This document shows positions 759-29,407 of a stretch of DNA of 64,000 bases, one piece after another (position 1 is the stretch's first letter; every line of letters starts with the position of its first letter). The translations under genes were made by a program, and so were the position numbers. The stretch covers positions 1 to 64,000 of the forward strand of contig JANVYR010000001.1 of NCBI GenBank assembly GCA_030059665.1, in the 5' to 3' direction. The DNA comes from Candidatus Calditenuis fumarioli. GTDB lineage: Archaea > Thermoproteota > Nitrososphaeria_A > Caldarchaeales > Calditenuaceae. The notes under the pieces were generated by a model. That model saw only the letters and a list, made by a program, of their open reading frames with translations, ran no database searches and had not been told where the DNA came from.

Positions 759-956
759 TTACGTCTCTCCGAGCGTCCTTTTGACCTCCTCTCTTAAGCC
801 TCTGACCAGCTGCATCCTAGCATCGAAGACTGAGTTGCACTCCGTACACCTGACGGCCATCGGTGCGTTGAGCTCCCAGACGAACTCCTTGCCGCAGTGC
901 TCACACGTCAGAATTATCCCCTTGAGGACCGCTCTATGCTCCTCCACTCGGTTCAC
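759..956 (-). CDS. Small Zn-ribbon/rubredoxin-like protein (CxxC-x16-CxxC), 65 aa
   Basis: CEHC...CTEC motif; GTGA 4-nt overlap with the stop of the upstream diiron-enzyme gene. Confidence 0.7.
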   Translation of the reverse strand: MNRVEEHRAVLKGIILTCEHCGKEFVWELNAPMAVRCTECNSVFDARMQLVRGLREEVKRTLGET

Positions 957-1861
957 CTCTTACTGGCCCTAAGCGTCTCGTAGAACTTCCTCCATCCCTC
1001 ATATTCCCTTATTATCGCCTCCTTGAAAGCCCTCTCTGCGATTTCCTGGAGTTCCTTCGTGACGCAGTACTTAGCGAGAATGTACTGCCCGAACCTCTCG
1101 TGGTAGATGTCTATGTAGCTGTGAACGTCGGGGTGTATCAGATGTCTCTCGGGAATCTTGTAGACCTTCCTCAGAGCAATAGCGACCTGTCTGGTTGGCT
1201 TAGGTATCCACCTCTCCCTAAGCATCTGGGCTGCAGCTATCTCTACGAAGTGGCCTTCCATGCACAGCTTGAGATAGTAGAGGTCCCTCTTGGTCAGGTG
1301 AAGGTCGCCTATGTCGTGGGCGGAGACCTCCCTTTCAGCCTCCTCCCTGCTCATCCCGAAGGCGCCAGTCAACAGGTCGAACAGCATCTCGTTGTGACCC
1401 GTCTCCTCGAAGAGGTGCCTAGCTATCATGTCCCTCACCTCCTTAAGTCCCGCGAGATGTGCCCTGAAGTGCGCTATGCCCTCGTACATGAATGAGGTGC
1501 CCGCATATCTGGCCAGATTTACGGCCCAACTCTTCAGCTCCTCCCATGTCAGCTCTCCCTTGACTATCAGCGGAGTCTGATTGGGGAAGAATGGCTCTCC
1601 CGAGTGATCCCTCATGAACCCGTTGTGCCACTCGATCAACCTCTCGACGAATTCCGCTGCCGGAAGCTCTTTCCATCCCTGCCAGCCCACGGAGAAGATT
1701 CCCTTGACAGGCGTGTAGGCACCGACGACGTGCAGCTCCCTTTCGCTGCCCTTGACGTGTTTCGCGTAGCTGAAGGGTTCGAGTCTGAACTGAACCTTTA
1801 GAGCCTCTACTATCTCCCTTTCATACGCTTCGTCATGAAAAAGTGATCCGGTTCCTGTCAC
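953..1861 (-). CDS. Heme-oxygenase-like diiron oxidase/oxygenase (HDO; TenA/PqqC/CADD superfamily)
   Basis: Ligand pattern EETGH ... E ... HxxxDxxH (VHSYIDIYH). The ORF is open to 1918, but GTG at 1861 is preferred because BRE+TATA lies ~23 nt upstream. Confidence 0.75.
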   Translation of the reverse strand: MTGTGSLFHDEAYEREIVEALKVQFRLEPFSYAKHVKGSERELHVVGAYTPVKGIFSVGWQGWKELPAAEFVERLIEWHNGFMRDHSGEPFFPNQTPLIVKGELTWEELKSWAVNLARYAGTSFMYEGIAHFRAHLAGLKEVRDMIARHLFEETGHNEMLFDLLTGAFGMSREEAEREVSAHDIGDLHLTKRDLYYLKLCMEGHFVEIAAAQMLRERWIPKPTRQVAIALRKVYKIPERHLIHPDVHSYIDIYHERFGQYILAKYCVTKELQEIAERAFKEAIIREYEGWRKFYETLRASKR

Positions 1862-1883
1862 GGGAGAGCTGTAGTATAGGGCG

Positions 1884-1898
1884 ATATAAATTTTTAGG
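1884..1898 (-). promoter_or_regulatory. Archaeal BRE/TATA promoter of the HDO gene
   Basis: Minus strand CCTAAAAA-TTTATAT, 23 nt from GTG 1861. Confidence 0.55.
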
Positions 1899-1955
1899 CT
1901 TAAGTTAAACCTTTTCAAAAAATATTTTTATATCAAACTAAAGATTGCGAAGGGC

Positions 1956-3101
1956 GTGAGAGACTCCACTTGTCGTAGAGGACCCGATTCAGATTATTCG
2001 ATTAGCAGGCGTAAGGCCATCTCTAAGGTTGCGGCGACCCTTGTCGCGACCGCCTTTGCGGCCGGTGTTGGAGGATACTATATCGGTGCATCTACAGGAT
2101 CGCAACGATTGCAAACGGAGGCTAGGACCGTTACCGTTCAGAAAATCTCCACTGTTACTATGACGCCTGCGCGACAACCAGTCACAATAAGTTTCACTAA
2201 TACTCAAGGGATGAGGGGGGCATCACTCCCCTCTCTCGTGATAGAGAACGTCAAGGAAATCCGTGAAATGTTGAAAGTCGATTTAAAATATAACATTGTC
2301 AGAGGCGCTGGTGAAGCATTAAAGGAACTCGCTGACGGTAGAGCAGACGTAGTTGCTGTCACACCAGCTCTCAATGCATTTCAAGCTTTTGAGACGAATC
2401 CAGAACTCAAGATTAAGATAGTTTACTTTGCAGACATAAGTGATACGAGCGGATTTATTGTTGGAGCTAATTCACCATTTAATTCGCTGGAGGACATAAA
2501 ACGTGATATTCAGCAGGGGAGGAAGATAAAAGTTGGGATTAGTAGACCGGGTTCGAAGGTACATCTGCTCTCCTATGTCTTGGCCCACGTGTTAGGCACC
2601 AAAATAGGGGAGGGGATCGAAGTCGTTGCTCTTGGAGAGGTAGATGCAATAGTAGCGGCCCTTACTAGGGGGGAGATAGATGGTTTTCCATGGTCTTTAG
2701 ACACCTTATGGCGATTGGAAGAGGAGAATAAAGGGAAGGTGATCTATTACTTCAGCGAATACTTTGGTCCTCAATGGCACGAGCGCACATTTGTTACGAC
2801 AGAAGAAGTAATTGCAAAGAATCCAGAAATAGTTGGTCGTTTCATCGAACTATGGCGTGAAGCCATTAGGTATTATCAGCTACATAGGGAAAAAGTAATA
2901 ACGCTGATGGCGTCACCGCCACCAGTTGGAATTGGAACTACTCCAACAATAGCGAAACGGTACACGGGAGTGTACCAGCCGAATTATGTTGGAGCACCCT
3001 TAATGGAAGCAATAGATAACGCAGTTAAGATAGGGTCAGCAATAGGATTATTAAAGAGGTCTCCACCGATAGACCAATTGTACACTACAAGATTTCTATG
3101 A
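1956..3101 (+). CDS. NMT1/SsuA/TauA-like ABC substrate-binding protein, paralog 1, twin-arginine N-terminal anchor
   Basis: SRRKA plus hydrophobic helix and Thr-rich linker; GISRPGS, DAIVAALTRGEIDGFPW, 'KNPEIVGRF' PBP2-type motifs. Confidence 0.8.
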   Translation: MRDSTCRRGPDSDYSISRRKAISKVAATLVATAFAAGVGGYYIGASTGSQRLQTEARTVTVQKISTVTMTPARQPVTISFTNTQGMRGASLPSLVIENVKEIREMLKVDLKYNIVRGAGEALKELADGRADVVAVTPALNAFQAFETNPELKIKIVYFADISDTSGFIVGANSPFNSLEDIKRDIQQGRKIKVGISRPGSKVHLLSYVLAHVLGTKIGEGIEVVALGEVDAIVAALTRGEIDGFPWSLDTLWRLEEENKGKVIYYFSEYFGPQWHERTFVTTEEVIAKNPEIVGRFIELWREAIRYYQLHREKVITLMASPPPVGIGTTPTIAKRYTGVYQPNYVGAPLMEAIDNAVKIGSAIGLLKRSPPIDQLYTTRFL

Positions 3102-3454
3102 TGTTTCTGAGGTATGATAGATAACCAACGTTGTGCAGGGCAATTTCTGCGCTTATCTTCTCATCATTCGAATATCTCCAGTGGACTAGTTGCGATGCCT
3201 TCCTAGTCTTGTTGCCTTCAGAATTGCTTTAGGCGACGTTTTTCGGTGCCCAAAGGCGCGGGTTTTCCTGATTGGATGAGCGGATGTGCACCTCGACATC
3301 GGAGAGTGAAGAAGGATGAAGGGTCTTCATAGGGCTAGACAGGAAGATGCTACAAGCGATCATGATTATGCATGACGAGGGTCGAGGATAATAGCAGAGT
3401 GTAGAACCAATCGGGTGGGCTATCGATCAAAAGAGGTAGGGTACTTCCTCTTAT

Positions 3455-3660
3455 ATGATGTTCATTTCGTATTCTTGGTATCCGTTCCTGTCCTTTCCGT
3501 CCTCCCCTACTCAGATGATCGCAGTAGACGGATTTGAGACCTCCCATGAACCTGACCTTCCTGAGGTAGTTCAGGCACCTCTCCCTATCAGGAAGGAAGG
3601 CAGGCCTCACCGCATCGGGGTCCACGAAGAACGCCTGCAAAGAAGGAATATTAATCCCTT
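3455..3660 (-). mobile_element. Degraded IS1595/IS1-like transposase N-terminal (Zn-ribbon) remnant
   Basis: FLPDRERCLNYLRKVRFMGGLKSVYC; a shifted frame then reads VGEDGKDRNGYQEY. Restoring two single-base deletions gives C-G-S-S-E-V-G-E-D-G-K-D-R-N-G-Y-Q, matching the CxxCGS..V.K.GK...G.QRY pattern. No DDE core is seen. Confidence 0.4.
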
Positions 3661-3683
3661 ATGAGAACGAGATGAGCACTCGG

Positions 3684-4011
3684 ATTAAACCACAAGGCAA
3701 GTGTCGAGGAGCATGTCTAAAAATTCTCCACACGCTTATTAACAATCGGCTTAATTCATCGTCCTATTTCCGCTCTCCAAGCCCTGGAGAGGCGATTTTC
3801 AGGGGCAGTTCTCCGGTTGAAGTAAGCTTTTACATGAACTTTTTGGGAAGGTTTAAGTAGTGATTTGTCATGCGATGCAGGTCGCCATACCAACTTTTAT
3901 ACTTTTCGACAAAGCTTATACGAAATTTGGAGAAAGCGCAAAGACACCACCAAGATTTCCGGGAATTGGGGCATTGGAGGCGAAAAGTTCAGAGAATTAA
4001 TCCACAAGGCA
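3684..4011. repeat. Imperfect 16-bp direct repeat ATTAA(A/T)CCACAAGGCA at 3684-3699 and 3996-4011
   Basis: 15/16 identity read directly from the sequence. Confidence 0.6.
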
Positions 4012-4056
4012 CAATCATAGAAAAATTAATAATTTAGTATCTTTAATGCGAACGGC

Positions 4057-5205
4057 GTGGACAACTCGCACAAACGAGTCTACACCAGAAGGGAGGCCAT
4101 TGCGAAATCGATAGCAGGGATCGCTGGGGCGGCTGTGGTGGCTGGAGTCGGTGGATATCTCCTCGGGTCATCAGCTGGAGCCGTCACTAAAACCGTTACC
4201 GCGCAACAGGGAATCCAGACGGTGATCAGGACTTTATTGACAACTGTTAGGGAGACCACAACCGTTACAGCGGAACCGAGATTGGAACCCATCAATATAA
4301 AGTTCACAAATACACAGGGAGGTAGAGGTACAGCTCCGAACACTCTCATCCACGAAAACCGGAAGGAACTGGCTGAAAAGTACAAGATCAACTTCAACTA
4401 TAACGTAGTTGAAGGGACGGGTGCTGCAGTCAAAGAGTTGGTTGAGGGAAGGGCTGATATTATAGGGCCCGCCACAGTAGCAGGATTAGCTGCAGCCATG
4501 GAACAGAATCCGCAGATCAAAATAGTGTATTTCGTGGATATTGGGGTATATACCACCTTCATGGTAGGTCCAAACTCACCATACAAGTCCCTGAGCGATC
4601 TAAGGGAAGCCATACGTCAAGGGAAGAAGATCCGCGTGGGTTACTCAAGGCCAGGTTCCCTGTCTTACACCTACACAGTGATACTGGCACACATCCTTGG
4701 AACTAAACTGGGAGAAGGGGTTGAAGGTGTGGCACTCGGCGCGATCGACGCCATAGTTGCTGCCACGGTGCGAGGGGAGGTAGACGGATTTCCGTGGACT
4801 CCGGACGTCCACTGGAGGCTTGAAGAGGAGGGGAAGGGGAGAGTCATTTACAGCTTCAGCGAATACTTCGGGTCGAAATGGCACGAACTCTGCTTCGCGA
4901 CGACAGAACAGATCATAAGGAACAATCCGGAAATGATCAGCAGGTTCGTGAACTACTGGCGCGATGTGACTCGCTATTATCTTCTGAACAGAGAGGAGGC
5001 GATTTCTCTGATGATGGCACAACCGCCGAAGGGGTTCGGAATGAGCAAGAACGTTGCCGAGAGATATTATTCAACGTACCTCGTGAATTACGTCGGTGCA
5101 CCTATCCGAGAAGCTCTTGCGAACGTCGACTTCTTCGCCAAGCTGACCGGTGTTGCCAAGAACCCACCACCAATAGACCAGTGGTATACAACTCAATTCC
5201 TTTAA
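4057..5205 (+). CDS. NMT1/SsuA-like substrate-binding protein, paralog 2
   Basis: TRREA signal; NTQGGRG, GYSRPGS, VDGFPW, WHE and C-terminal PPIDQWYTTQFL are shared with the paralogs. Confidence 0.8.
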   Translation: MDNSHKRVYTRREAIAKSIAGIAGAAVVAGVGGYLLGSSAGAVTKTVTAQQGIQTVIRTLLTTVRETTTVTAEPRLEPINIKFTNTQGGRGTAPNTLIHENRKELAEKYKINFNYNVVEGTGAAVKELVEGRADIIGPATVAGLAAAMEQNPQIKIVYFVDIGVYTTFMVGPNSPYKSLSDLREAIRQGKKIRVGYSRPGSLSYTYTVILAHILGTKLGEGVEGVALGAIDAIVAATVRGEVDGFPWTPDVHWRLEEEGKGRVIYSFSEYFGSKWHELCFATTEQIIRNNPEMISRFVNYWRDVTRYYLLNREEAISLMMAQPPKGFGMSKNVAERYYSTYLVNYVGAPIREALANVDFFAKLTGVAKNPPPIDQWYTTQFL

Positions 5206-5324
5206 GTACTGCGTTTTTTGAGAATTGAATATAAGCTTTACTAAAAGAAATAAAAATTGGTACGGGTAATCTTCCTATCATGAAAATTTGGATGAGATAT
5301 ATTTAAATAACAGAATTAATTAAA

Positions 5325-6503
5325 TTGACCGAGATGTCGGAATACAACTCGTCTTTTATTGTTTCTAGGAGAAGAGCTTTGGCGAGGATCGTGGGTGGCG
5401 TAATCGGTGCGGCGATAGCTGCAGGCGTGGGAGGGTATTTCGTTGGGTCGAGTATCGGAAGGGGGGAGAAAACTGTGACATTAACTCAACGCGGTTCAGA
5501 GGTCACTAGAACAGTCTTTTCCACCGTGAGAGAGGTTGTGACGACCACCGTCAGAGCTGAACCCGTGCCGCTATCAGTAAGAATAACCACCACACAAGGA
5601 GGGATTGGTCTCGCGCCCTATCACCTGATCATACAGAGGTATCTGGACGGAGGTCAGGAGATGGCAAAGAAGTTAGGACTCAGGGTGGACGCGTTCAATG
5701 TCGTCCGAGGAACTGGGGAGGCGATGAAGGAGTTGCTCGAGGGACGCGCAGATGTGATCACGGGTGTTAATGTGATAGAGGCCGCAAGACAGGTGGAAGA
5801 GACTAAAGGCGAGGTCAAGATATTCTACTTCTGCGAATATGGGAATTACGTTTCGCTGGTGGTGGCGCCCAATTCGCAGTATAAATCAATAGAAGACCTT
5901 CGACGGGTCGTCAGAGAGGGCAAAAGGTTGAAGGTAGGATTCTCTAGGCCAGGATCGCTTACCCACGCCTATGTCTACATACTGAGTACCATACTAGGAA
6001 CTGAGATCGGAAAAGGGATCGAAGCAGTGTCGTTGGGCGAGTTCGATGCGATAGTGGCGGCCCTCAACAGAGGTGAGATAGACTGCTTCCCATGGAGCGT
6101 GAGCAGGACGTTCTCTTTAGAAGAGACCGGTAAAGGAAAAATAATTTATTACTTCAACGAGTTCCTGGGGACGAAGTGGCATGATTTGTGTCACGTTTCT
6201 ACGACAAGCTACCTACAGAAGAACAAAGAGACAGTTAGGAGGTTCGTTTCATACTGGCGGGAAGCCGTGCGTGCTTGGATGCTCAACCCGGAGCTTTCCA
6301 TCTCGCTAATGAAGGCTGACCCTCCGAAGGGACTTGGCCTCACCGACTCTGCGGCTAAAAGGTGGTACAATACGCTCGTGCCTAACCCGCTTGGTGCGCC
6401 TAACACCGATGCTCTGAAGGAGATAGAGAAGTACGGTAAGCTCATAGGACTTTTAAAGAATCCCCCACCTGTTGAGCAATGGTACACAACAGAGTACCTG
6501 TGA
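5325..6503 (+). CDS. NMT1/SsuA-like substrate-binding protein, paralog 3
   Basis: SRRRA signal; GFSRPGS, IDCFPW, PPVEQWYTTEYL. The start may be ATG 5334. Confidence 0.8.
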   Translation: MTEMSEYNSSFIVSRRRALARIVGGVIGAAIAAGVGGYFVGSSIGRGEKTVTLTQRGSEVTRTVFSTVREVVTTTVRAEPVPLSVRITTTQGGIGLAPYHLIIQRYLDGGQEMAKKLGLRVDAFNVVRGTGEAMKELLEGRADVITGVNVIEAARQVEETKGEVKIFYFCEYGNYVSLVVAPNSQYKSIEDLRRVVREGKRLKVGFSRPGSLTHAYVYILSTILGTEIGKGIEAVSLGEFDAIVAALNRGEIDCFPWSVSRTFSLEETGKGKIIYYFNEFLGTKWHDLCHVSTTSYLQKNKETVRRFVSYWREAVRAWMLNPELSISLMKADPPKGLGLTDSAAKRWYNTLVPNPLGAPNTDALKEIEKYGKLIGLLKNPPPVEQWYTTEYL

Positions 6504-6596
6504 CCGCCGCTAACGGTATGAACGGAGGAGCGATAATGAAGCTCAAACATACAGTATATATTTCACGCTTGAAAGCAAAAGATACGTGAGCTGAAA

Positions 6597-8264
6597 ATGA
6601 TTGGGTCGCACGTTCTTTTAACGACGCTCCAAGAGTTGGGATTGACGACCGTATTCGGTAATCCGGGCTCGACGGAGGTTCCATGGTTAGACGAGTTGCC
6701 TAAGTTCGAGGGCATATGGTACGTCCTCGCCCTTCATGAGTCTATCGCCGTGAGCATGGCAGACGGGTATGCCCAGGCTAGAAGGGGACCTGCCGTCGCA
6801 TCCGTTCACGCGTCTCCGGGCTTCCTCCACTGCATGAGCGCCTTATATAATGCTAAGGTCGCAGGGACGCCGGTCATTGTACTAGCTGGTCAGATCGAAA
6901 GCGAGATCCTCATAAGGGATCCATTCTTGGCCTCGGATTTTGTGTCTGCTTCACGGGGATATGCAAAATGGGCATGGGAACTCAGGTCGGCAAACGAGAT
7001 AAGGTATGCTATTAGGAGGGCTGTAAAGGTAGCCACATCTCCTCCAACCGGACCTGTAGTTCTTTCAGTCCCCAGAGATTTCTTCGACGAGGAGATAGAA
7101 TGGGACATGCCGATGCCTACAGACTACAGGTCGGTACCTTGGGACTACGCACCGGAGGAAGACGTAATTGAGAGAGCCTCGGAACTCCTCCTCAATTCCG
7201 AGTCCCCTGCCATGATATGTGGGCCCGAGGTAAGATGGTTCAATGCGATCCCCGAGTGTGTTTCACTTGCAGACCTCCTGGGACTCAAGGTCTACGACGA
7301 CGTGCGATTTGGGATCTATTTTCCAGTTACCCACCGCTTCTATTTCGGAAGTTTCACCAAAGACGACCTCAAATCCCACGACCTCATTCTAGTTGTTGGT
7401 CAGAAATTATTTTATGAGAGGACCCGTGAACAAGTCCCCCTCGTGAGCAGGAATCAAAGGATTCTGCACATAACCACGGATCCCATTGAGCTCGGAAAGA
7501 ACTATGAAGCAACCCTCTGTATACTCGGAAATCCAAAGAATGTGGTAGCGAAGTTGGTGAAGAAGTGCTCCGAGAAACTATCATCGTGGTCTGAAAAGGT
7601 TGAGAGGCGTAAGAAGGAGTTGGAGAGGGAAAGATCCGCAAAGCTGGACGAAGACGAGCGTGAGCTGAAGGACTATTACGACAGGAAACCGGTTTCGCCC
7701 CACAGGCTTGTCAGAGAGGTCGATCGCGTCTTCGGAAACAATGGGAGATTGAACGTGGTTGTTGAGGCCGTGACCACGCAGCCCTACATACGTCGATACC
7801 TCAAGTCGCTTACCGGAGACAATTACTATTCGTCACCGGGAGCAGCGCTGGGATGGGGAGTTGCTGCAGCTGTGGGCGTTAAGCTCGCTAGAGGGGAAGA
7901 AGAGGTGGTTTGCTTCACAGGAGATGGTGCGTTCATGTACTATCCACAGTCCCTCTGGACTGCAGCTAGGATGGGACTTAAAATTGTGACCATAATTGCG
8001 AATAACAGAGCCTACATGAATGACAAGCTTCATCTCATGAGCAGAAGAGGCCATGCTTATAAGATGGGGTACTATCAACCAGTCGAAATAGACAACCCTC
8101 CTATCTCATTCGTGAGCATAGCAAAGGGGATAGGTTGCGACGGTTTGGAGGTCAAAGATCCCTCGGAGCTCCAGGACGCGCTGGAGAAGGCCTTATCGAG
8201 CGATCGGCCGTTCGTCATCGACGTCAGGGTAGACCCGGAGGTCTTCGACAGGTCAAGGGTGTGA
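6597..8264 (+). CDS. Thiamine diphosphate-dependent enzyme, benzoylformate decarboxylase (MdlC)-like
   Basis: VFGNPGSTE, LHE (catalytic Glu), GDGAFMY...NN ThDP motif. Confidence 0.85.
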   Translation: MIGSHVLLTTLQELGLTTVFGNPGSTEVPWLDELPKFEGIWYVLALHESIAVSMADGYAQARRGPAVASVHASPGFLHCMSALYNAKVAGTPVIVLAGQIESEILIRDPFLASDFVSASRGYAKWAWELRSANEIRYAIRRAVKVATSPPTGPVVLSVPRDFFDEEIEWDMPMPTDYRSVPWDYAPEEDVIERASELLLNSESPAMICGPEVRWFNAIPECVSLADLLGLKVYDDVRFGIYFPVTHRFYFGSFTKDDLKSHDLILVVGQKLFYERTREQVPLVSRNQRILHITTDPIELGKNYEATLCILGNPKNVVAKLVKKCSEKLSSWSEKVERRKKELERERSAKLDEDERELKDYYDRKPVSPHRLVREVDRVFGNNGRLNVVVEAVTTQPYIRRYLKSLTGDNYYSSPGAALGWGVAAAVGVKLARGEEEVVCFTGDGAFMYYPQSLWTAARMGLKIVTIIANNRAYMNDKLHLMSRRGHAYKMGYYQPVEIDNPPISFVSIAKGIGCDGLEVKDPSELQDALEKALSSDRPFVIDVRVDPEVFDRSRV

Positions 8265-8267
8265 GAG

Positions 8268-9278: not shown

Positions 9279-9311
9279 TCACGAGGATCTAAAGCCCCAT
9301 TGAATGATAGA

Positions 9312-11747: not shown

Positions 11748-11780
11748 GCCGTTTATTTCAAACGTGCTAAAATTTAGTCA

Positions 11781-11792
11781 TTGTTGCAACAA
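11781..11792. promoter_or_regulatory. Perfect 12-bp palindrome TTGTTGCAACAA in the divergent paaK/hpaB intergenic region (candidate operator)
   Basis: Self-complementary sequence next to the AT-rich promoter element at 11767-11777. Confidence 0.4.
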
Positions 11793-13389: not shown

Positions 13390-13399
13390 GTCGATCGGA

Positions 13400-18628: not shown

Positions 18629-18639
18629 GGTGAGCTGCA

Positions 18640-18939: not shown

Positions 18940-18943
18940 ACTC

Positions 18944-19351: not shown

Positions 19352-19368
19352 AAAGAAGAGGGTTGGGG

Positions 19369-20595: not shown

Positions 20596-20677
20596 GGCGT
20601 AGTGGCTCTAGATAACCACAAGAAATACCTTTTCCTTGACCCTCTAAAATTATGCGACGTGATAAGCGGTCTCTCGG

Positions 20678-21388: not shown

Positions 21389-21491
21389 GACCCTTCGAGC
21401 ATGACCCTTCGGGCGCCTTTTATTTTAACCGAACGGTTTCAATCCCCACATCCAGGGGATCAGATCCCATAATTTAAATAGTGGGGGATCT
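21386..21491. repeat. Cluster of direct and inverted repeats in the divergent aldolase promoter region
   Basis: CATGACCCTTCG x2 (21386-97, 21400-11); AACCG-AA-CGGTT (21427-38); ATCCCC-N7-GGGGAT (21442-60); AGATCCC-N16-GGGATCT (21462-91), which brackets TTTAAATA. Confidence 0.6.
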
Positions 21492-21502
21492 CGCATGACC
21501 AC

Positions 21503-22192: not shown

Positions 22193-22231
22193 TCGATCCC
22201 TGATCGAAATCGAACCCAAAGGTGAAGCATT

Positions 22232-24676
22232 TTGTCCTTTCTCCCTCCACTCAGGGTCCACGAGAGGGCCAGAGAGGTCGCCCTGAGATGGGTTGGTAGG
22301 CCCATCAAGAGGAAGGAAGACCTGAGGTTCTTAATGGGCAGGGGGCGGTTCGTCGACGACATCAAGTTCGATAACGCGCTCTACCTGGCCTTCGCGAGGA
22401 GCAAGGTAGCACACGCGAGGATCAGACAGGTCGACGTGAGCAAGGCCATGAGGCTGCCCGGCGTCAGGCTCGTCCTGACCGGAAAAGAAGTCGCCGAGCT
22501 GATCAAACCTTGGCCGCATCTCATTCCCACCCCACCATACTATGGAATTGCCGTTGACAAGATAAGATACCAGGGAGAGCCGGTGGCCATGGTCGTTGCG
22601 GAGAGCAAATACGTAGCTGCGGACGCAGCCGAGATGATCGAGGTCGATTACGAACCGTTGAAACCCGTTGTCACGATAGAGCAGGCGCTCGCACCGGACG
22701 CGCCTCAGATACACGACGGGTTCGAGCGAAACGTCGCTTGGAGCAAACGGTACGTGTACGGGGATGTGGAGAACGACTTCGCTAGGGCCGATCGCATAGC
22801 CAGGGGGAGGTACTACTTCCACAGGTTCATATCTTCACCCCTTGAGCCAACCGCGCTGGCAGCGTACTACGACAGGAGCACTGGGGTGCTCACGATTTAC
22901 GACCAGCACCAGCAGGCACCGATGTACCACGCCAGGTACTCGAGGGTGATAGGCATCCCTTCGAACAGGATCAGCATCAAGGTCCCGGATCTGGGAGGTG
23001 GCTTCGGGAACAAGCAGAGCGTGTACCCGTACACCGCACTTGTGGCACTTGCATCGATGCTCACCAACAGGCCTGTGAAGTACGTCGCGTCAAGGTCGGA
23101 GGACCTGATGGCGCTCATGCATTCCCCTGACAGGATCACGGAGGCCGAGTTCGCCTACAGATCTAACGGCGAGATCTTATCCGTCAGGATGAAGCTCTAC
23201 GACAACTTCGGCGCATACCTCAGGCACCCCGACCCTCAGAACGTCACGAGGGCCTTCCCCTCGATCACCGGACCATACAGAATCAAATCCATCGAGATAG
23301 ACGCCACGGGGGTCTTCACCAACACCTGTCCGACGGGACCCAACAGGGGGTTCGGGCAGCAGCACGCGAGCTTCACCTTTGAGAGGATGGTGGACAAGGT
23401 GGCTGAGGAACTGGGGATGGATCCCGCGGAGCTGAGGTTCCTCAACTTCATCAGGCCGGAGCAGATGCCGTACGAGACACCCATAGGCTCCGTTTACGAC
23501 GGCGGTGATTACCCGACCTTGCTTAGGAGGGCACTCGAGCTGGCAGGGTACGAGCAGCTGCGCCGCGAACAGGAGGTCATGCGGAGCAAGGGGGTGCTGA
23601 TGGGGATAGGGGTCGCGGCCATCGTAGAGGGTGGTGCGACGGCTTTCGGCTTCGCGCGTCTCTGGGGTGGGGATCCCAAGCTGGTATCTGGGTACGCCTC
23701 CATGGCAGAAGCGGCATCCCTGAGGGTCCTTCCCGATGGATCGGTTCTGGTAGCGATGGGGACCACTCCCCAGGGTCAGGGGCACGAGACGGTCGCGGCT
23801 CAGATCGTGGCCGATTTCCTGGGCGTGACGCCGGACGACGTCATAGTGATGCCAGGCTTCGACAGCGACGACCATCCCTACAGCGCCTCGGGTTCCGGCA
23901 CGTACGCTAGTAGGTTCTCGCAGATCGGCGTGGGTGCGCTCGTCGGCGCCGCTCTGAAGGTGAGGGAGAAGGTCCTTGCTATCGCGGCCCACAAGCTCGA
24001 GGCCAACCCGGCCGACCTCGTTCTCGAGGACGGAAGGATCTACGTGAAGGGTCATCCGGAGCGGAGCATCACGTTCAGGGAGGTGGCGAGGATAGCGCAC
24101 ACCCGCCTGGGAGAGCTTCCGCCAGACACGGAGGCGGGCCTCGAGGCATATTACACATACAACTTCCCATACAGCAAGCCCGTAGGCGACGACCTGAGGG
24201 GGAACCTCTGCAGCTCGTACAGCGCGCTCGCCGGTGTGGCCGCAGTGGTCGTCGACGCTGAGACAGGACAGATAGGTGTGAAGAAGCTGGTTGTGGTCCA
24301 CGACGCAGGGAGGGCCATAAACCCGCTGATACTCGAGGGTCAGGTGCACGGAGCCGTAGCGAACGGCCTAGGCGGTGCCCTCTTCGAGGGGTTCGAGTAC
24401 GACGAGGACGGGAACCTCCTGACGTCGACCTACATGGATTACCTTCCCATCTCAGCGACCGAGATGCCAGAGCTGATACTCGATCACATGGAGACGCCAT
24501 CTCCCTTCACCGTGCTCGGAGCAAAGGGGTCAGGTGAGGGAGGAACGATACTGCTGCCGGTGCTGATCGGTAACGCAGTCAACGACGCGCTCAGACCTCT
24601 CGGCGTCGAGGTCACCACATCCCGCCTCACACCCCACAACGTCTGGAGGATGATCAAGGAAAGGCGCAGCACCTGA
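22232..24676 (+). CDS. Xanthine dehydrogenase family molybdopterin-binding large subunit 1 (CoxL/HmfA-like; not form I CODH)
   Basis: RKEDLRFLMGRGRFVDD, GGGFGNK, GPNRGFG, QGQGHET, SGTYASR, KGSGE motifs. Confidence 0.9.
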   Translation: MSFLPPLRVHERAREVALRWVGRPIKRKEDLRFLMGRGRFVDDIKFDNALYLAFARSKVAHARIRQVDVSKAMRLPGVRLVLTGKEVAELIKPWPHLIPTPPYYGIAVDKIRYQGEPVAMVVAESKYVAADAAEMIEVDYEPLKPVVTIEQALAPDAPQIHDGFERNVAWSKRYVYGDVENDFARADRIARGRYYFHRFISSPLEPTALAAYYDRSTGVLTIYDQHQQAPMYHARYSRVIGIPSNRISIKVPDLGGGFGNKQSVYPYTALVALASMLTNRPVKYVASRSEDLMALMHSPDRITEAEFAYRSNGEILSVRMKLYDNFGAYLRHPDPQNVTRAFPSITGPYRIKSIEIDATGVFTNTCPTGPNRGFGQQHASFTFERMVDKVAEELGMDPAELRFLNFIRPEQMPYETPIGSVYDGGDYPTLLRRALELAGYEQLRREQEVMRSKGVLMGIGVAAIVEGGATAFGFARLWGGDPKLVSGYASMAEAASLRVLPDGSVLVAMGTTPQGQGHETVAAQIVADFLGVTPDDVIVMPGFDSDDHPYSASGSGTYASRFSQIGVGALVGAALKVREKVLAIAAHKLEANPADLVLEDGRIYVKGHPERSITFREVARIAHTRLGELPPDTEAGLEAYYTYNFPYSKPVGDDLRGNLCSSYSALAGVAAVVVDAETGQIGVKKLVVVHDAGRAINPLILEGQVHGAVANGLGGALFEGFEYDEDGNLLTSTYMDYLPISATEMPELILDHMETPSPFTVLGAKGSGEGGTILLPVLIGNAVNDALRPLGVEVTTSRLTPHNVWRMIKERRST

Positions 24677-24772
24677 CTTGTCCGCGTGACCCACGTTCCC
24701 GGAGAACCTCAATCCGAGTTTTTGGTTGGAGATCGAAGGTTTAATAACCAACATCGAACCCTCAAGGACGAC

Positions 24773-25681
24773 TTGTTCAGCCACCACCTGACCCTCAGCA
24801 GGGAGATCAAGGAGTACGCGGGCCTTCTCGAAGGGGTCGTAGACCTTCACGTCCACACGGCGCCGGACGTGCTGCAGAGAGCGGTGGACGACCTCGAGTA
24901 CCTGGAGGCCCTTCGGGAAGTCGGCTATGTAGCGTACCTCTCCAAGAACCACTTCACCGAGACTGCCAGCAGGGCGTACATTCTCAGCAGGCACAGCGGA
25001 AAGGTCAGGGTGCTCGGGGGCATAGTGCTTAACTCGCCCGTTGGAGGGCTGAACCCCTCGGCGGTCGACAAGGCGCTGGCAATGGGTGCGGCTGAGGTGT
25101 GGATGCCCACTCTTGACGCGGAGAACCACATCAGGACCTTCGGCTCGGCGACGCTTCCCACCACCAGCAGAGTCAGGTCCTTCAGGTCTTACAAATCAGC
25201 AGGCGGAATGATCAGGATCCTGGACGACTCCGGCGAGCTGAAGCCTGAGGTGCTGGAGATCCTGGAACTCGTGGCTGAGAGCGACGCCATATTGGGCACC
25301 GGTCACCTGTCGTTGCAGGAGGTTTACAAGTTGGTCGAGGCCGCAAGGAAGGTCGGCGTCAAGAAGATCCTCGTGACGCATCCGCACTTCAAGGCTACGA
25401 GGTTCAGCACGGAGGACCAGCAGCGACTTGCGGGGATGGGAGCTCTGATGGAGCACTGCGCGGTTGCGGGGTATGACCCTAAGGAGCTGGCTGAGGACAT
25501 CAGGCGCGTAGGTCCAGGAAACTGCATCATATCGAGCGACGCCGGCCAGCCGCACAAGGGTCACCCGGTAGACGTCCTGCTGAAGATGATCGCGGAGCTG
25601 AAGGAGCAGGGCATCTCGGACTCAGATATCGAGAGGATGACCAAGAGGAACCCGTCCAGGCTGGTGGAGCACCTGCTCTGA
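24773..25681 (+). CDS. DUF6282-like uncharacterised metal-dependent TIM-barrel protein
   Basis: DLHVHTAPD, KNH, WMPT, TGH, THP, EHC, SSDAGQ. The ORF is open to 24686; TTG 24773 is preferred because TTTAATA lies at ~24740. Confidence 0.7.
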   Translation: MFSHHLTLSREIKEYAGLLEGVVDLHVHTAPDVLQRAVDDLEYLEALREVGYVAYLSKNHFTETASRAYILSRHSGKVRVLGGIVLNSPVGGLNPSAVDKALAMGAAEVWMPTLDAENHIRTFGSATLPTTSRVRSFRSYKSAGGMIRILDDSGELKPEVLEILELVAESDAILGTGHLSLQEVYKLVEAARKVGVKKILVTHPHFKATRFSTEDQQRLAGMGALMEHCAVAGYDPKELAEDIRRVGPGNCIISSDAGQPHKGHPVDVLLKMIAELKEQGISDSDIERMTKRNPSRLVEHLL

Positions 25682-25683
25682 AA

Positions 25684-27279
25684 ATGCGCACCTCCGTGAT
25701 TCCCGAGGCGGTCCAAGAGCGCTTCAACGTAGTCGAGCTGCACCTCGACAGATGGATCAGGAACGGCCTCGCTGAGCGAGTTGCGCTGATAGATCTGGAA
25801 TCGGGCGAGGAGACGACGTACCGCGAGCTCCACAGACTCGCCTGCAGGTTCTCGAACGTGCTTGCTGAACACTCGCTCGAGCTGTTCGATAGGGTCATGA
25901 TAGCGATGAGGGACAGCAGGCTCTCGGTCGCCTCCTTCCTGGGCGCCATGAGGGCCGGAATGGTGCCCTTCTACGTCAACCCGAACTACGGCGTCGACGA
26001 ATTCAAGTTCTTCATCAGGGACAGCCGCTGCAGGGCGATCATCGCAGACCGCTCGACTGCTGAGAAGCTGGAGGTAGCCACAAGGGAAGTGGGCAAGCAC
26101 GTGAAGGCGATGGTGAACGTCGACCGCGATGGCTTCAGCGATCTCCTCGAGGATTTCAGGGACGAATACCCGCTTGCGGAGACGCATAAGGACGATCCCG
26201 CGTACATAGTGTACACATCAGGCACAACGGGCCGACCTAAAGGGGCGGTTCACCTACATCACGACCTGGTTTACGCCGTTGGCCCCTATGTCTCCAACGT
26301 GATAGACGTCAGGGAGGGCGACGTCTTCTATTCCGCGTCTAAACTGTATTTCTCTGCGGGAAGGATGTTCGGGCTCCACATACCGCTGATGTGCGGTGCG
26401 ACCAGCTTGATAGACCCGGAGAGGTCAACGCCAGAGCGCGTGCTGGCGGCGATTTCAGGACGCGACGTAACGCACCTGCTCTGCGTCCCCACCCTTTACC
26501 TCCGGATCCTCAACCACCTGGAACGACTGGGGGTCCGGACGCTGGAGCGGAGGGCCTTGAGGTACTGCGTCTCGGGCGGCGAGCCACTGCCTGCCTCGGT
26601 CTTCGAGAGGTGGAGAGAGGTCACGGGTCTTGAGATACTGAACGGTATAGGAAGCTCGGAGGCCGAGTGGATCTTCATCTCCTACAGGCAGGGAGAATGT
26701 AAGCCTGGCTCCTCGGGCAAGGTCATACCGGGATGGGAGGCCAAGTTGGTAGACGAATCCGGACAGGAGGTGACCGAGCCGTATAAAGTGGGCGTTCTTT
26801 ACATAAGCTCCGACAGCGTCGCCGCCTTCTACTGGAGGAGGAGCGAGGAGACCAGACGGACGTTCATCGGTAGGTGGTACAACACGATGGACATGCTGTA
26901 CTTCGACCAGGACGGGTACCTGCATTACGTGGGAAGGAGCGACGACCTGTTCAAGGTGCACGGGATGTGGGTCTCACCTGCGGAGGTGGAGGACGCCATC
27001 CTGGCAACGGGCCTGGTGCAGGAGTGCGCGGTGATCGGTCTACCCACGTCCGAGGGTCTGACGGAGGTCGTGGCGTTCGTTGTCCCTAAGGACCCATCAA
27101 ACCAGCGGCTCGAGGAGGAGCTGAAGGCAGCTCTAGCAGACCGAATACCGAGATACAAAATTCCCAGTAAGGTCCTAACGGTCGATGAGATACCGAAGAC
27201 CGCAACCGGAAAGGTCAGGCGGACCGCGCTGAGGGAGATGGCGATGAGCGGGCTCATCAAGCGGGCGGGTGAGCTGTGA
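25684..27279 (+). CDS. Benzoate-CoA ligase family AMP-forming ligase 2
   Basis: YTSGTTGRPKGAVH, SGGEPLP, NGIGSSE, GRSDD, KTATGKVRR motifs. Confidence 0.9.
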   Translation: MRTSVIPEAVQERFNVVELHLDRWIRNGLAERVALIDLESGEETTYRELHRLACRFSNVLAEHSLELFDRVMIAMRDSRLSVASFLGAMRAGMVPFYVNPNYGVDEFKFFIRDSRCRAIIADRSTAEKLEVATREVGKHVKAMVNVDRDGFSDLLEDFRDEYPLAETHKDDPAYIVYTSGTTGRPKGAVHLHHDLVYAVGPYVSNVIDVREGDVFYSASKLYFSAGRMFGLHIPLMCGATSLIDPERSTPERVLAAISGRDVTHLLCVPTLYLRILNHLERLGVRTLERRALRYCVSGGEPLPASVFERWREVTGLEILNGIGSSEAEWIFISYRQGECKPGSSGKVIPGWEAKLVDESGQEVTEPYKVGVLYISSDSVAAFYWRRSEETRRTFIGRWYNTMDMLYFDQDGYLHYVGRSDDLFKVHGMWVSPAEVEDAILATGLVQECAVIGLPTSEGLTEVVAFVVPKDPSNQRLEEELKAALADRIPRYKIPSKVLTVDEIPKTATGKVRRTALREMAMSGLIKRAGEL

Positions 27280-28163
27280 CCGCACCAGAGGACCTCTGGA
27301 TCAACGACGTCCACATTCACGTCAATCCGTTCTCGAAGTTGAAGAGGCCGGCGTTCGAGTTCTTCGCGACCAACCCGGACTTCCGGGAGAACTGGCAGAG
27401 GATCGAACGTGACCCGGAATACCTCATCCGGAGGATGGACGAGGACAGGGTGAAGAGGGCAGTCCTGATCAACTACGTCGCTGAGGAAGTCATGGGATAC
27501 GACGTCTCTACGAACCAATACGTATACGAGTACTGCAGGGATCACAGGGACAGGCTCCTGCCCTTTGCTGGCGTGGACGTTCGCATGGCCCCTCGGGAGT
27601 TCAGGGAGCAGCTCGAGACGGCGTACTCCAAGTACGAGGTCGAGGGCTTCAAGCTCCACCCTGTCCACCAGCTCGTCTACCCGAACCAGTACAGGGAGGA
27701 GTACGGCGAGCGGGCCGTGAGGAACCTCGAGACCTTCTACCAGTTCTGCAGCGACCACGGATTGCCCGTTACCGTCCACACTGGAACGTCCATGTTTCCG
27801 GGAGCCAGGCTGAAGTACGGTCAGCCTATACACCTCGACGACGTGCTGGTCGACTTCCCGAGGCTGAGGCTTCTGATGGCGCACGGCGGCCGTCCCTTCT
27901 GGATGGACGAGGCCTTCTTCCTCATGCGACGCCACAGGAACCTCTACCTAGACGTCTCTGGGATCCCACCGGGCAAGCTGCTCGAGTACTTCCCGAGGAT
28001 CGAGGAGGTCGTTGACAGGGTGTTATTTGGGAGCGACTGGCCGAGCCCCGGCGTGAAGGGGATGAGGGAGAACGCCCTCGGGATCTGGAAACTGAACGGG
28101 CTGTCGGAGGAGGCCAAGTTGCGGATACTGGTGAGGAACTTCGACGAGTTCTTCAAACGGTAG
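27276..28163 (+). CDS. Amidohydrolase-2 family protein
   Basis: DVHIH, GFKLHP, VHTG, AHGGRP, LYLDVSG, FGSDWP motifs; GTGA overlap with the ligase. Confidence 0.85.
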   Translation: MTAPEDLWINDVHIHVNPFSKLKRPAFEFFATNPDFRENWQRIERDPEYLIRRMDEDRVKRAVLINYVAEEVMGYDVSTNQYVYEYCRDHRDRLLPFAGVDVRMAPREFREQLETAYSKYEVEGFKLHPVHQLVYPNQYREEYGERAVRNLETFYQFCSDHGLPVTVHTGTSMFPGARLKYGQPIHLDDVLVDFPRLRLLMAHGGRPFWMDEAFFLMRRHRNLYLDVSGIPPGKLLEYFPRIEEVVDRVLFGSDWPSPGVKGMRENALGIWKLNGLSEEAKLRILVRNFDEFFKR

Positions 28164-28180
28164 ATCCGTAGGTGAGCTCT

Positions 28181-29407
28181 TCAGCCGGCTGAGCGGAGCC
28201 GCTGCACCAGCTCGACCACCTCCTCATCCGTCAGGTCCCTCTTCAGCAGCATGGCCCTCGACTTGATCGCCGTTAGTAGCCGATCGACTTCCTGCTCGCT
28301 GACCTCTATGCCCAGCTTCTGGAGCTTGTAGCGCAGTGAGTCTCGTCCGCTCTTCTTCCCGATTACCACCCGCACAGGAGGCTGACCGACCAGCTCGGGA
28401 AGGAACGGGAACACCTCGTTCGGATACTCGTGCTCGACGTTGACCCACCACCCGGCAACGATCCCGGACTCGATGTGGAATATCCTGTCACCTACGACCG
28501 GATGTTGGGGCTCGAGTTTCACCCTTGAGAGCTCCTCCACCAGCTTCGAGAGCTTCTTCAGCCTTTCCGTCCTGACGTTGACCTCGACTCCGTAAAGAAG
28601 CTTCAAGGCCATCACCGTCTGCTCGAGCGACGCGTTCCCGGACCTCTCACCTATCCCGTTGACGGAGACGTGAACCGTCTCCACGCCGTTAACCACGGCG
28701 AAGACGGTGTTGGCTACAGCGAGGCCGAAGTCGTTGTGAACGTGGATCTCCAGCGGTTTCCCCACACGGGACCTGAAGAGGCTGACGAAGCGTGCTATCG
28801 CGTGAGGGGAGCATGCCCCGAAGGTATCGACGAGGACGAGCGAGTCCATGTGACCTTCGGTTGCCACCGAGTTGATGAGCCGCCAGGCGGTCTGGAAAGG
28901 AGCCCTGGTCGAGTCTATCGTGAAGAAAGCCACATAGAGCCCGTGTTCGTGTGCGTACCTGGTGGCGTCGACTGCCAGCTGGATGGCCCTCTCCTCATCC
29001 CATCTGTAGGCCCTTCGCAAGAGGTGATCGCTGGACGGTATCTCGACCACCACTCCATCCACGTCGCACTTGAGAGCCAGGTCGATGTCGCTCCTCAAAC
29101 ACCTCGAGAACGCGAAGACCTTGGAGCTGAGACCGAGTTTTGCGATCTCCTTCACGGCCTCGAAGTCCTCCTGGGAGACCGCGGGCATACCCGCCTCGAT
29201 CCTGTCAACCCCGGCCTCATCCAGGGCCCTGGCGATCTCGAGCTTCTCGGCTTTCCTGAACGCTACACCAGCCTGCTGCTCACCGTCCCTCAGCGTCACG
29301 TCGTGAACGTACACCCGTTTCGGCATGTCACGCAGCTGCCGCAGAACCTCTTCATCGAAGTTGTAATGACTTACGAAATACCCTTCTCCGACATGCTTTT
29401 CGTTCAT
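28181..29407 (-). CDS. DRE-TIM metallolyase (homocitrate/isopropylmalate/citramalate synthase-like), no LeuA regulatory domain
   Basis: DVTLRDGEQ, IEAG, HVHND, GIGERSGN, GKKSG motifs. Confidence 0.8.
   Translation of the reverse strand: MNEKHVGEGYFVSHYNFDEEVLRQLRDMPKRVYVHDVTLRDGEQQAGVAFRKAEKLEIARALDEAGVDRIEAGMPAVSQEDFEAVKEIAKLGLSSKVFAFSRCLRSDIDLALKCDVDGVVVEIPSSDHLLRRAYRWDEERAIQLAVDATRYAHEHGLYVAFFTIDSTRAPFQTAWRLINSVATEGHMDSLVLVDTFGACSPHAIARFVSLFRSRVGKPLEIHVHNDFGLAVANTVFAVVNGVETVHVSVNGIGERSGNASLEQTVMALKLLYGVEVNVRTERLKKLSKLVEELSRVKLEPQHPVVGDRIFHIESGIVAGWWVNVEHEYPNEVFPFLPELVGQPPVRVVIGKKSGRDSLRYKLQKLGIEVSEQEVDRLLTAIKSRAMLLKRDLTDEEVVELVQRLRSAG

Follow-up and report, generated by a model that had tools for sequence, protein, structure and literature searches.

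Does a dense run of aromatic-acid genes in a Caldarchaeales genome encode one catabolic pathway, or does it combine genes of different origin? We studied this question in Candidatus Calditenuis fumarioli (contig JANVYR010000001.1 of assembly GCA_030059665.1), in which positions 759-29407 of contig 1 carry genes for a phenol hydroxylase (HpaBC), a LigAB-type extradiol dioxygenase, CoA ligases and a subunit of a molybdenum (Mo) hydroxylase. The stretch of DNA analysed, hereafter the window, was 64,000 nt long. A preliminary description had taken all of 759-29407 as one hybrid funnel for aromatic acids. We lean slightly towards reading the region as a putative mosaic accessory island that serves to degrade phenolic or aromatic carboxylic acids aerobically, and not as one pathway. 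The central genes are functionally linked and indicate O2-dependent aromatic-acid catabolism with CoA thioesters and LigAB-type cleavage, which agrees with that description. The island represents a genuine variant of aromatic catabolism of the LigAB type, laterally mobile and so far found almost only in Caldarchaeales. Assignments of individual steps merit much less confidence than this general reading.

Source genome and gene content

The window comprises the first 64 kb of contig 1. The genome (label G000) is 1.57 Mb in size, in three contigs and 91% complete, and has a genome-wide GC content of 62.3%. Other G labels denote comparison genomes and L labels comparison loci. Genes were called from a listing of open reading frames (ORFs), and the window proteins were then searched with Pfam and NCBIfam profiles. 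All gene classes previously named for 759-29407 were recovered in place by the ORF listing, Pfam and NCBIfam. The reported lack of a regulator also held, as Pfam detected no DNA-binding domain in any plausible ORF of 759-29407. The count of two amidohydrolases was right for the two Amidohydro_2 genes, both of which are present, and has to be extended by DUF6282, a third gene of the amidohydrolase superfamily.

The contig is archaeal (Caldarchaeales), as had been assumed. LigB and the last amidohydrolase have near homologues in sources named Candidatus Caldarchaeum sp., Aigarchaeota archaeon, Ca. Caldiarchaeum subterraneum and Thaumarchaeota. An archaeal-type CTP-dependent riboflavin kinase is encoded just downstream, and the island gene order was also found in independent NCBI, JGI and ENA assemblies. 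These findings do not support a bacterial or chimeric origin.

Upper-pathway genes of the conserved core

The conserved core occupies 10.2-28.2 kb and consists of the PaaK-like gene with orf68, HpaBC-ACD, a ligase, LigBA-thioesterase, SBP-RraA (SBP, substrate-binding protein) and RraA-MoL-DUF6282-ligase-amidohydrolase (MoL, Mo-binding large subunit). The genes with putative upper-pathway or uptake functions are as follows.

10180-10386, minus: 68-aa ORF (orf68), directly downstream of the PaaK-like ligase gene
10386-11747, minus: PaaK-like aryl/arylacetate-CoA ligase of the AMP-binding_C_2 type (Pfam)
11908-13389, plus: HpaB-family two-component flavin-dependent phenol hydroxylase, oxygenase component (HpaB_N and HpaB domains)
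13400-13924, plus: HpaC-like flavin reductase (PF01613, 145.6 bits), 10 nt after hpaB
13878-16088, plus: fused ADP-forming acyl-CoA synthetase (ACD; CoA_binding, Succ_CoA_lig and ATP-grasp_5 domains)
16080-17720, minus: benzoate-CoA ligase family enzyme BCL1 (TIGR02262, 537.2 bits against a cut-off of 375.25), divergent from ligB
17810-18628, plus: LigB-type class III extradiol dioxygenase catalytic subunit, type A (PF02900, 119.9 bits)
18640-18939, plus: LigA-type small subunit (PF07746, 40.7 bits against a cut-off of 25.3)
18944-19351, plus: hot-dog (4HBT/YbgC-like) acyl-CoA thioesterase (PF13279, PF03061), 4 nt after ligA
19369-20595, minus: Liv-type (Peripla_BP_6) SBP (Pfam), with no permease or ATPase gene adjoining here
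25684-27279, plus: benzoate-CoA ligase family enzyme BCL2 (TIGR02262, 403.7 bits against a cut-off of 375.25)

BCL1 and BCL2 are the only island enzymes that pass curated NCBIfam equivalog or subfamily cut-offs, and their scores are the firmest pointer to aromatic carboxylic acids as substrates. Orthologues of BCL1 (64-76% identical) adjoin the HpaBC-ACD operon and LigBA in G006, G023 and L028, and a 62% orthologue in L034 adjoins Amido2 and the thioesterase. The DUF6282-BCL2 pair also occurs in L028.

The Fe site of LigB is intact, as previously noted: in alignments with LigB (1B4U) and DesB (3WKU), the positions of the Fe ligands and the catalytic His are taken by His12, His59, the GGLSH His and the FEF Glu. 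Among solved structures the protein matched gallate dioxygenase DesB with 69 bits, LigB (1B4U_B) with 56 and MhpB with 52. It remained below every NCBIfam cut-off (NF009912, 66 vs 837; NF009903, 77.6 vs 317; NF009904, 88 vs 412; HpaD_Fe, 30 vs 316), and these scores place it at near-equal distance from the gallate, protocatechuate and MhpB types. The named sources of homologues above 45% identity are all archaeal, nearly all of them Caldarchaeales, plus one short Sulfolobus fragment; the remaining homologues are at most 38% identical. LigB thus appears to represent a deep clade, almost only archaeal so far and roughly equidistant from the characterised types. The ligA gene lies directly 3' of ligB in all relatives compared. 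The thioesterase gene follows ligA in G023, L028 and L029, lies close by in L034 and is absent in G006 and L030. An orthologue of the Liv-type SBP heads a complete ABC transporter in L028 and L034, and the Liv transporter genes of the present genome sit in an island on contig 3.

HpaB matched solved 4-hydroxyphenylacetate 3-hydroxylases with 237 bits, with the R-x3-Y and TH motifs aligned, and chlorophenol/nitrophenol monooxygenases with ~170 bits. A function as 4-hydroxybutyryl-CoA dehydratase was rejected, since dehydratase/isomerase structures gave 63-87 bits against 237 for HpaB and a flavin reductase is coupled to the gene; that reductase is the only HpaC-like copy in the genome. HpaB is probably a phenol hydroxylase with a specificity that its sequence does not set. 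The ACD gene belongs to the same operon as hpaBC, in an HpaB-HpaC-ACD order conserved in four other assemblies. The ACD domains begin at residue 41, and the true start probably lies a little downstream of the called one. Its best NCBIfam match was the Archaeoglobus acetate-CoA ligase (546 bits vs a cut-off of 1200). The PaaK-like ligase, 74-81% identical in G006, G023 and L028, scored 280 and 272 bits on the NCBIfam PaaK models, under their cut-offs of 700 and 646. It is followed at every related locus by a homologue of orf68 (52-63% identity), for which no NCBIfam match was found.

These genes could also serve an arylacetate route, in which ACD would convert arylacetyl-CoA from tyrosine or phenylalanine to 4-hydroxyphenylacetate with gain of ATP, HpaBC would form homoprotocatechuate, LigBA would cleave it and the Mo enzyme would replace HpaE. 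Such a route would suit the oxygenase, whose best family and structure matches are 4-hydroxyphenylacetate 3-hydroxylases, and the PaaK-like ligase and ACD, whose genes accompany hpaBC in every case. Arylacetyl-CoA is a substrate of archaeal ACD isoenzymes, and Liv-type binding proteins classically bind amino acids. However, HpaB reached only 288 bits on TIGR02309 and thus stayed below the equivalog cut-off of 480, and LigB gained only 30 bits on the HpaD model. HpaE/F/G/H/I are not in the island, and the single FAH and single HpcH/HpaI genes of the genome lie on contig 2. The ligases above curated cut-offs are of the benzoate and not the phenylacetate type, and in known pathways, RraA-type aldolases act in the lower part of the protocatechuate 4,5/gallate route. 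We regard the arylacetate route as unlikely.

Candidate lower-pathway genes

The reading as a route for phenolic or aromatic carboxylic acids also involves the following genes. Those on the plus strand form, together with BCL2, the five-gene operon RraA2-MoL-DUF6282-BCL2-Amido2 (21503-28163).

20678-21388, minus: RraA-like protein 1 (RraA1), candidate pyruvate aldolase/oxaloacetate decarboxylase (PF03737, 133 bits)
21503-22192, plus: RraA-like protein 2 (RraA2; PF03737, 142.7 bits), first gene of the operon
22232-24676, plus: large, Mo-binding subunit (MoL) of a xanthine-oxidase-family hydroxylase/dehydrogenase (three Mo-cofactor domains)
24686-25681, plus: DUF6282, amidohydrolase-superfamily TIM-barrel metal hydrolase, candidate lactonase/hydrolase (PF19799, 236.7 bits)
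27276-28163, plus: Amido2, Amidohydro_2 metal-dependent hydrolase/hydratase (PF04909, 131.7 bits), 4-nt overlap with BCL2

Both RraA-like proteins keep the R-D motif, and RraA1 has 80% identical orthologues in G023 and L030. The preliminary description had called the two proteins HMG-type aldolases. Their membership of the RraA family stands, while the scores on the LigK models remained too low for LigK itself (TIGR02798, 94 and 106 bits vs 304.5; NF006731, 100 and 114 vs 179). The same holds for the proposed LigAB-LigJ-LigK route, which is borne out at the level of superfamilies and no further, as no LigJ match was found at E<0.01 and the RraA scores lie below the LigK cut-offs. Neither Amido1, an Amidohydro_2 protein of the left part of the region, nor Amido2 was supported as LigJ or LigI in searches of solved structures, and no sequence-level match to LigI was found for Amido1, Amido2 or DUF6282. 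Amido2 has the invariant residues D11, H13, H15, H168 and D254 and comes closest, among solved structures, to the uncharacterised 3IRS.

The true start of DUF6282 is probably ~30-40 codons downstream of the called one. Its conserved columns are HxH, K, H, H and D. By sequence the protein matched solved structures only marginally, with a weak profile match to a phosphotriesterase-homology protein. For its confident AF2 model (pLDDT 89.8) the top folds were a phosphotriesterase-homology protein, the putative PDC hydrolases 2FFI and 4I6K, and lactonases, at TM values of 0.5-0.6, a resemblance no closer than that of amidohydrolases in general.

Against solved structures MoL scored 518 bits with CoxL and 438 with quinoline 2-oxidoreductase, and it lies below all NCBIfam cut-offs. 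Its active-site loop reads GPNRGFGQQ. The genome encodes 11 Mo large subunits and four small [2Fe-2S] subunits, none of the latter in the window. A CO dehydrogenase was considered and rejected: the active-site signatures of CoxL, which we take to be AYRCSFR (form I) and AYRGAGR (form II), are missing, the TIGR02416 score was 548 against a cut-off of 991, and no small-subunit gene occurs in the window. Another orphan Mo large subunit is encoded at 37326-39755, between thiolase-like and acyl-CoA dehydrogenase genes (window 36139-41323, minus strand).

A heteroaromatic or furoate route could account for the five-gene operon, since it joins a Mo hydroxylase, a CoA ligase and two hydrolases. There, a ligase would form a (hetero)aryl-CoA, the Mo enzyme would hydroxylate the ring with water, DUF6282 would open a lactone or lactam, the thioesterase would free the product, and LigBA and HpaB would act on a dihydroxylated heterocycle or an aminophenol-type intermediate. 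Precedents for ring hydroxylation by Mo enzymes are 2-furoyl-CoA dehydrogenase and the nicotinate and picolinate dehydrogenases. The trio of ligase, Mo subunit and Amidohydro_2 gene recurs in G025, MoL comes near quinoline 2-oxidoreductase and is related to 4-hydroxybenzoyl-CoA reductase, the modelled fold of DUF6282 is lactonase/phosphotriesterase-like, and an isochorismatase-family, amidase-like gene is present in the sister island on contig 3. But MoL matches CO-dehydrogenase-like and aldehyde-dehydrogenase-type proteins equally strongly and reached no equivalog level. The route also leaves LigBA, HpaB and RraA, the most constantly linked genes, with no defined role, and in G006 and L030, which lack DUF6282, BCL2 and Amido2, the Mo subunit stays beside RraA and LigBA. 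This alternative appears quite improbable.

Several families of the known routes were sought. Neither PF04303 (PrpF/LigU) nor PF05138 (PaaA/BoxB-type diiron oxygenase) was found in the 91%-complete genome, and PF02585 (PIG-L/GalB) was likewise not found in it. As no PaaA/BoxB-type enzyme was found in the genome, aryl-CoA cannot enter the Paa or Box epoxidase routes. PF01408 (Gfo/Idh/MocA, the family of LigC) was in no island gene; its only clear genomic copy is at C1:564702, ~535 kb off.

Conservation of gene order and related loci

The linkage of the core genes was examined at related loci. PaaK-like with orf68, HpaB-HpaC-ACD and the ligase recur at 63-87% identity in G006, G023, L028 and L030/L031 (HpaC alone at 60-70%). 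LigBA falls in the range of 64-87% identity in the same set. LigBA (with or without the thioesterase), SBP-RraA and RraA-MoL (with or without DUF6282, ligase and amidohydrolase) adjoin or neighbour this hydroxylase block in the relatives, and the SBP-RraA/RraA-MoL order then follows in G023, L030 and L031. On the distant Caldiarchaeum-like contig L034 the genes are reshuffled into MoL, LigA-LigB, the SBP with a full ABC transporter, DUF6282, an SDR gene, Amido2-ligase, thioesterase and RraA. Since the same families re-associate after rearrangement, they are likely to be functionally coupled.

A sister island was found at 104-134.5 kb of contig 3 (L020, L021). It holds a second Liv-type binding protein (LivSBP'), an ABC ATPase, LigB'-LigA'-HpaB' and an HTH_10 regulator. 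Further genes encode ABC ATPases, permeases with RraA' between the two, an isochorismatase-family protein, MoL', MFS transporters, MoL'' and a luciferase-like (F420/LLM-class oxidoreductase) protein. The Liv-type ABC transporter encoded here is complete. The window HpaB, LigB, LigA, SBP and MoL are 52-59% identical to their contig-3 copies, which are in each case the closest paralogue; RraA is 40% identical. Because the window and contig-3 copies are co-diverged closest paralogues, the module appears to have been duplicated, or acquired twice, as a unit. The sister island supplies a regulator and transporter parts that the window island is without.

The neighbours might instead be unrelated accessory genes gathered in a recombination-prone region. 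Island content indeed differs between genomes, a repeated gene is found at either edge of the island, and the 11 Mo large subunits are scattered over many contexts. This explanation is very improbable, however, given the re-association of the families in different orders across lineages, the presence of the module as a co-diverged duplicate, and the tight packing of the operons, whose genes overlap or are only 2-39 nt apart.

The nearest outgroup LigB (38% identity) is encoded by an operon LigA-PIG-L-RraA-LigB at L036 (3842-10866; SRA assembly, GC 43.5%). PIG-L is, we assume, the family of GalB, and the operon would by analogy encode a gallate-type dioxygenase/hydratase/aldolase trio. With PIG-L presumably standing for GalB, this trio supports an aldolase role of RraA beside this LigB lineage. 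An Amidohydro_2 gene lies near the same operon. In Sulfolobus acidocaldarius (L037, 8225-9489), a 162-aa C-terminal LigB fragment, 47% identical to the window LigB, lies directly beside fragments of a Mo large subunit. The fragments look like the remnant of a decayed LigB-Mo-subunit module, and their adjacency is a weaker hint of a functional link.

Lateral transfer of the island

The distribution of the island is patchy at the level of LigB, which had matches in 10 of the 76 Caldarchaeales genomes, or 3 of the 15 genera; three genomes of the same genus, 84-90% complete, gave no match with the window LigB query. G006 belongs to another family, and its island genes are 76-88% (type A) and 65-83% (type B) identical to those of the source genome, against 53, 63, 60 and 39% for four non-island genes of the window. 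Although few genes served as comparators, the two sets of values lie far apart. From this gap between island and non-island identity in G006, it follows that the island moved laterally within the order, between families. The set of SBP, aromatic-acid CoA ligase, HpaB, LigB, LigA, MoL and RraA is co-inherited, duplicated and laterally shared.

The left low-GC module and the limits of the island

To the left of the core, the region contains the following features.

759-1918, minus: HDO together with a 65-aa four-Cys mini-protein (Zn-ribbon match below cut-off)
953-1918, minus: HDO-type diiron protein (PF14518, 36.9 bits against a cut-off of 28.9)
1956-3101, 4057-5205 and 5325-6503, plus: three NMT1/SsuA-like binding proteins (Pfam)
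6597-8264, plus: thiamine diphosphate (ThDP) enzyme, best match benzoylformate decarboxylase (329 bits against a cut-off of 493)
8268-9278, plus: Amido1, Amidohydro_2 protein, ACMSD/LigW/resorcylate-decarboxylase-like
9312-10154, minus: EamA-family permease (PF00892; GC 53%, GC at third codon positions (GC3) 0.62)
1956-9278, plus: low-GC module of the three binding proteins, the ThDP enzyme and Amido1 (GC 46-52%, GC3 0.41-0.60)

Genes at 953-10154 have a GC content of 46-53% (GC3 0.41-0.70), whereas those at 10386-29407 have 55-61% (GC3 0.67-0.90, mostly ~0.8). The EamA permease belongs compositionally to the low-GC module. In the same-genus genome G025, the block of two binding proteins, ThDP enzyme and amidohydrolase is conserved at 61-72% identity and is equally low in GC. 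The low GC of window 1-10154 is hence biological in origin and probably reflects DNA acquired earlier from a donor of lower GC. The G025 block lies about 15-20 kb from a paralogous type-B LigBA, with ligase, Mo subunit and Amidohydro_2 genes between. Neither EamA nor the PaaK-like gene was found beside the module in G025, and the EamA-orf68-PaaK junction was found in no other genome compared. The left module is a real unit of separate compositional origin that is seen joined to the core only here; it may be a separately acquired feeder or an unrelated unit. A chimeric assembly behind the GC break was not supported, as the orthologous G025 block has the same low GC; the junction itself was not seen in other genomes.

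The tie of HDO and the mini-protein to the island is weak, and no orthologue of HDO was found at the related Caldarchaeales loci. At the distant locus L036, an HDO 35% identical to that of the window sits 4 kb from the LigA-PIG-L-RraA-LigB operon, the sole outside hint that ties HDO to an aromatic theme. A stretch of 956 bp (3102-4056) between binding-protein genes 1 and 2 contains no convincing ORF; the longest has 96 aa and no Pfam hit, and an Rfam scan of 1-32 kb matched no RNA family, in this stretch or elsewhere.

At the right end, the following gene adjoins Amido2.

28181-29407, minus: isopropylmalate/homocitrate/citramalate-synthase-like protein, LeuA-type (HMGL-like and HCS_D2 domains; NCBIfam LeuA-type matches below cut-off)

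This gene has five paralogues in the genome. No orthologue was found beside Amido2 in G023 or at other related loci, and it is probably not part of the island.

That all of 759-29407 would be a single hybrid funnel serving a LigAB-LigJ-LigK-type route, as first described, has some merit: the genes are all adjacent, their families fit aromatic-acid chemistry, the G025 low-GC module is less than 20 kb from type-B LigBA, and an HDO (35%) and an Amidohydro_2 gene adjoin the LigAB-RraA operon in L036. The unit of 29 kb did not hold, however. Composition breaks sharply at ~10.2 kb, the EamA-orf68-PaaK junction was seen in no other genome, and HDO and the isopropylmalate-synthase-like gene are not conserved neighbours, being without orthologues at related loci. 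Moreover, neither amidohydrolase matches LigJ, the island has no LigC-type gene, and no LigU or GalB was found in the genome. We consider a single funnel decidedly improbable.

Candidate route and evidence against it

Under the mosaic-island reading, the core would work as follows. An aromatic acid would be taken up via the Liv-type SBP, for which matching permease and ATPase genes are present in the sister island, and a benzoate-CoA-ligase-family enzyme would convert it to the CoA thioester. HpaBC would hydroxylate either the free acid or its thioester, giving an ortho-diol or triol acid of the catechol or gallate type. The thioesterase, or the reversible, ATP-recovering ACD, would free the hydroxylated acid from CoA, and LigBA would open the ring by extradiol attack. 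Instead of LigC, the Mo enzyme might oxidise the semialdehyde or hemiacetal, using FAD and iron-sulphur (FeS) subunits encoded elsewhere. DUF6282, Amido2 or both would hydrolyse or hydrate the product, and an RraA-like aldolase would release pyruvate. For these lower-pathway steps we infer enzymes that are non-orthologous to the bacterial ones.

Several points weigh against such a route. Only two ligases reach curated cut-offs, so that neither a step nor a substrate is set by homology, and the part of CoA thioesters in hydroxylation is pure inference. G006 and L030 are without the thioesterase, DUF6282, BCL2 and Amido2; the steps of these four are therefore dispensable or replaceable. The closest solved match of the RraA-like proteins is the uncharacterised 3K4I (181 bits), ahead of HMG/CHA aldolase 3NOJ (71 bits). 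MoL could equally be a ring hydroxylase, its matches being non-discriminating. Amido2 gave no match to LigI or LigJ at E<0.01, either as a single sequence or as a 28-sequence profile; genomes of anaerobic Asgard, Bathyarchaeia and Thermoplasmata carry many members of its family, and neither of the two contexts inspected (Freyarchaeia and Thermoplasmata) is related to the island. The three divergent promoter regions showed no common operator, palindrome or 9-mer of interest, only AT-rich TATA-like stretches.

A more elaborate form of the route would place hydroxylation on the CoA thioester, with release by ACD recovering part of the ATP, and would let MoL, with shared FAD/FeS subunits, replace LigC and pass electrons to the respiratory chain, the whole set travelling as a mobile island. 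We think this combination doubtful, and quite probably wrong in that full form.

Comparison with known systems

The island most resembles three bacterial routes in parts. With the protocatechuate 4,5-cleavage pathway (ligAB-ligC-ligI-ligU-ligJ-ligK of Sphingobium sp. SYK-6; pmd/fld clusters) it has in common the two-subunit LigB and LigA, with the same Fe ligands and catalytic His, and RraA proteins (LigK family) and amidohydrolase-superfamily proteins (that of LigI/LigJ) adjoin LigBA in the island too. It differs in having no LigC-type gene and no detectable LigI or LigJ orthologue, LigU not being found in the genome, and links instead a Mo-hydroxylase subunit, HpaBC, four CoA ligases and a thioesterase. 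In the gallate pathway (GalA/DesB, GalB, GalC/LigK), which needs no semialdehyde dehydrogenase, DesB is the best solved match of LigB (69 bits), and the LigA-PIG-L-RraA-LigB set of the nearest outgroup locus L036 resembles this pathway. The island differs from it in that LigA is a separate, unfused gene, NF009904 gave 88 bits against 412 and no PIG-L was found in the genome. The homoprotocatechuate pathway (hpaBC, hpaD/hpcB and hpaE-I of E. coli W/C and Thermus) likewise has HpaB/HpaC beside a LigB-superfamily ring-cleavage enzyme. In contrast to that pathway, HpaB and LigB of the island are below equivalog cut-offs and the lower-pathway genes are absent from the island.

CoA-dependent hydroxylation is known from the salicylyl-CoA 5-hydroxylase route sdgABCD (Streptomyces sp. 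WA46) and the p-hydroxybenzoyl-CoA route phgABC. These presumably resemble the island in combining a CoA ligase, a hydroxylase, a thioesterase and a ring-cleavage dioxygenase in one cluster. The island would differ, as we understand those clusters, by its HpaB-type hydroxylase, by LigAB in place of a cupin gentisate dioxygenase and by the extra ADP-forming synthetase. To our knowledge, haloarchaea and Sulfolobales account for most of what is known of aerobic aromatic ring cleavage in archaea, and they use other enzyme sets.

No description of islands linking HpaBC, the Mo subunit and RraA was found in the literature searched. The locus had been called undescribed. This remains true in so far as that literature held no characterised equivalent, and needs qualification because Aigarchaeota LigAB genes were noted in 2015, apparently in a different, paralogous operon. 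Beam et al. (2015, PMC4681859) described a six-gene operon of Ca. Calditenuis aerorheumensis that encodes homologues of LigA and LigB along with a hypothetical protein and a Rieske-type 'ring-hydroxylating dioxygenase'. They found it transcribed in situ and did not identify the aromatic substrate. We found a type-C operon, FAH-HAD-LigB-LigA-hypothetical (228 aa)-Rieske, in G005, G006, G018, G022 and L035 (6195-10858), and also in L024-L027. Matched by the published description alone, the operon of Beam et al. fits type C. LigBs of type C share 44-50% identity with types A and B; the source genome has no type-C operon.

A deep-branching, almost archaea-only LigAB clade is found here time and again in linkage with a two-component phenol hydroxylase, CoA ligases for aromatic acids, an orphan Mo subunit and RraA proteins. 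If the proposed steps hold, non-orthologous enzymes would replace most of the bacterial protocatechuate/gallate lower pathway, and a role would emerge for part of the numerous orphan 'CoxL-like' subunits in thermophilic archaea that so far lack an explanation. Gene sharing between Caldarchaeales families is also clearly illustrated by the island, and this matters for how these hot-spring heterotrophs use dissolved organic carbon. Its enzymes are thermophile-derived candidates for aromatic-acid conversion.

Contig ends

The start of contig 1 (ORF 3-533, minus; window 1-533) and the end of contig 3 (L021:10022-10552) break inside outward-reading paralogous genes. The two paralogues are 60% identical overall, and their last 283 bp are 97% identical and inverted. 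The encoded protein had no Pfam or NCBIfam match, and a 75%-identical homologue adjoins a benzoate-CoA-ligase-like gene in G025. A join between the end of contig 3 and the start of contig 1 was rejected, as the 283-bp match is inverted and lies within outward-reading paralogues, which marks it as a repeat and not an overlap. This repeated gene at both island edges probably caused the assembly breaks. The ends of contigs 1 and 2 share an exact 77-bp inverted overlap, typical of the k-mer overlap of neighbouring contigs, and these two contigs are probably adjacent in the genome.

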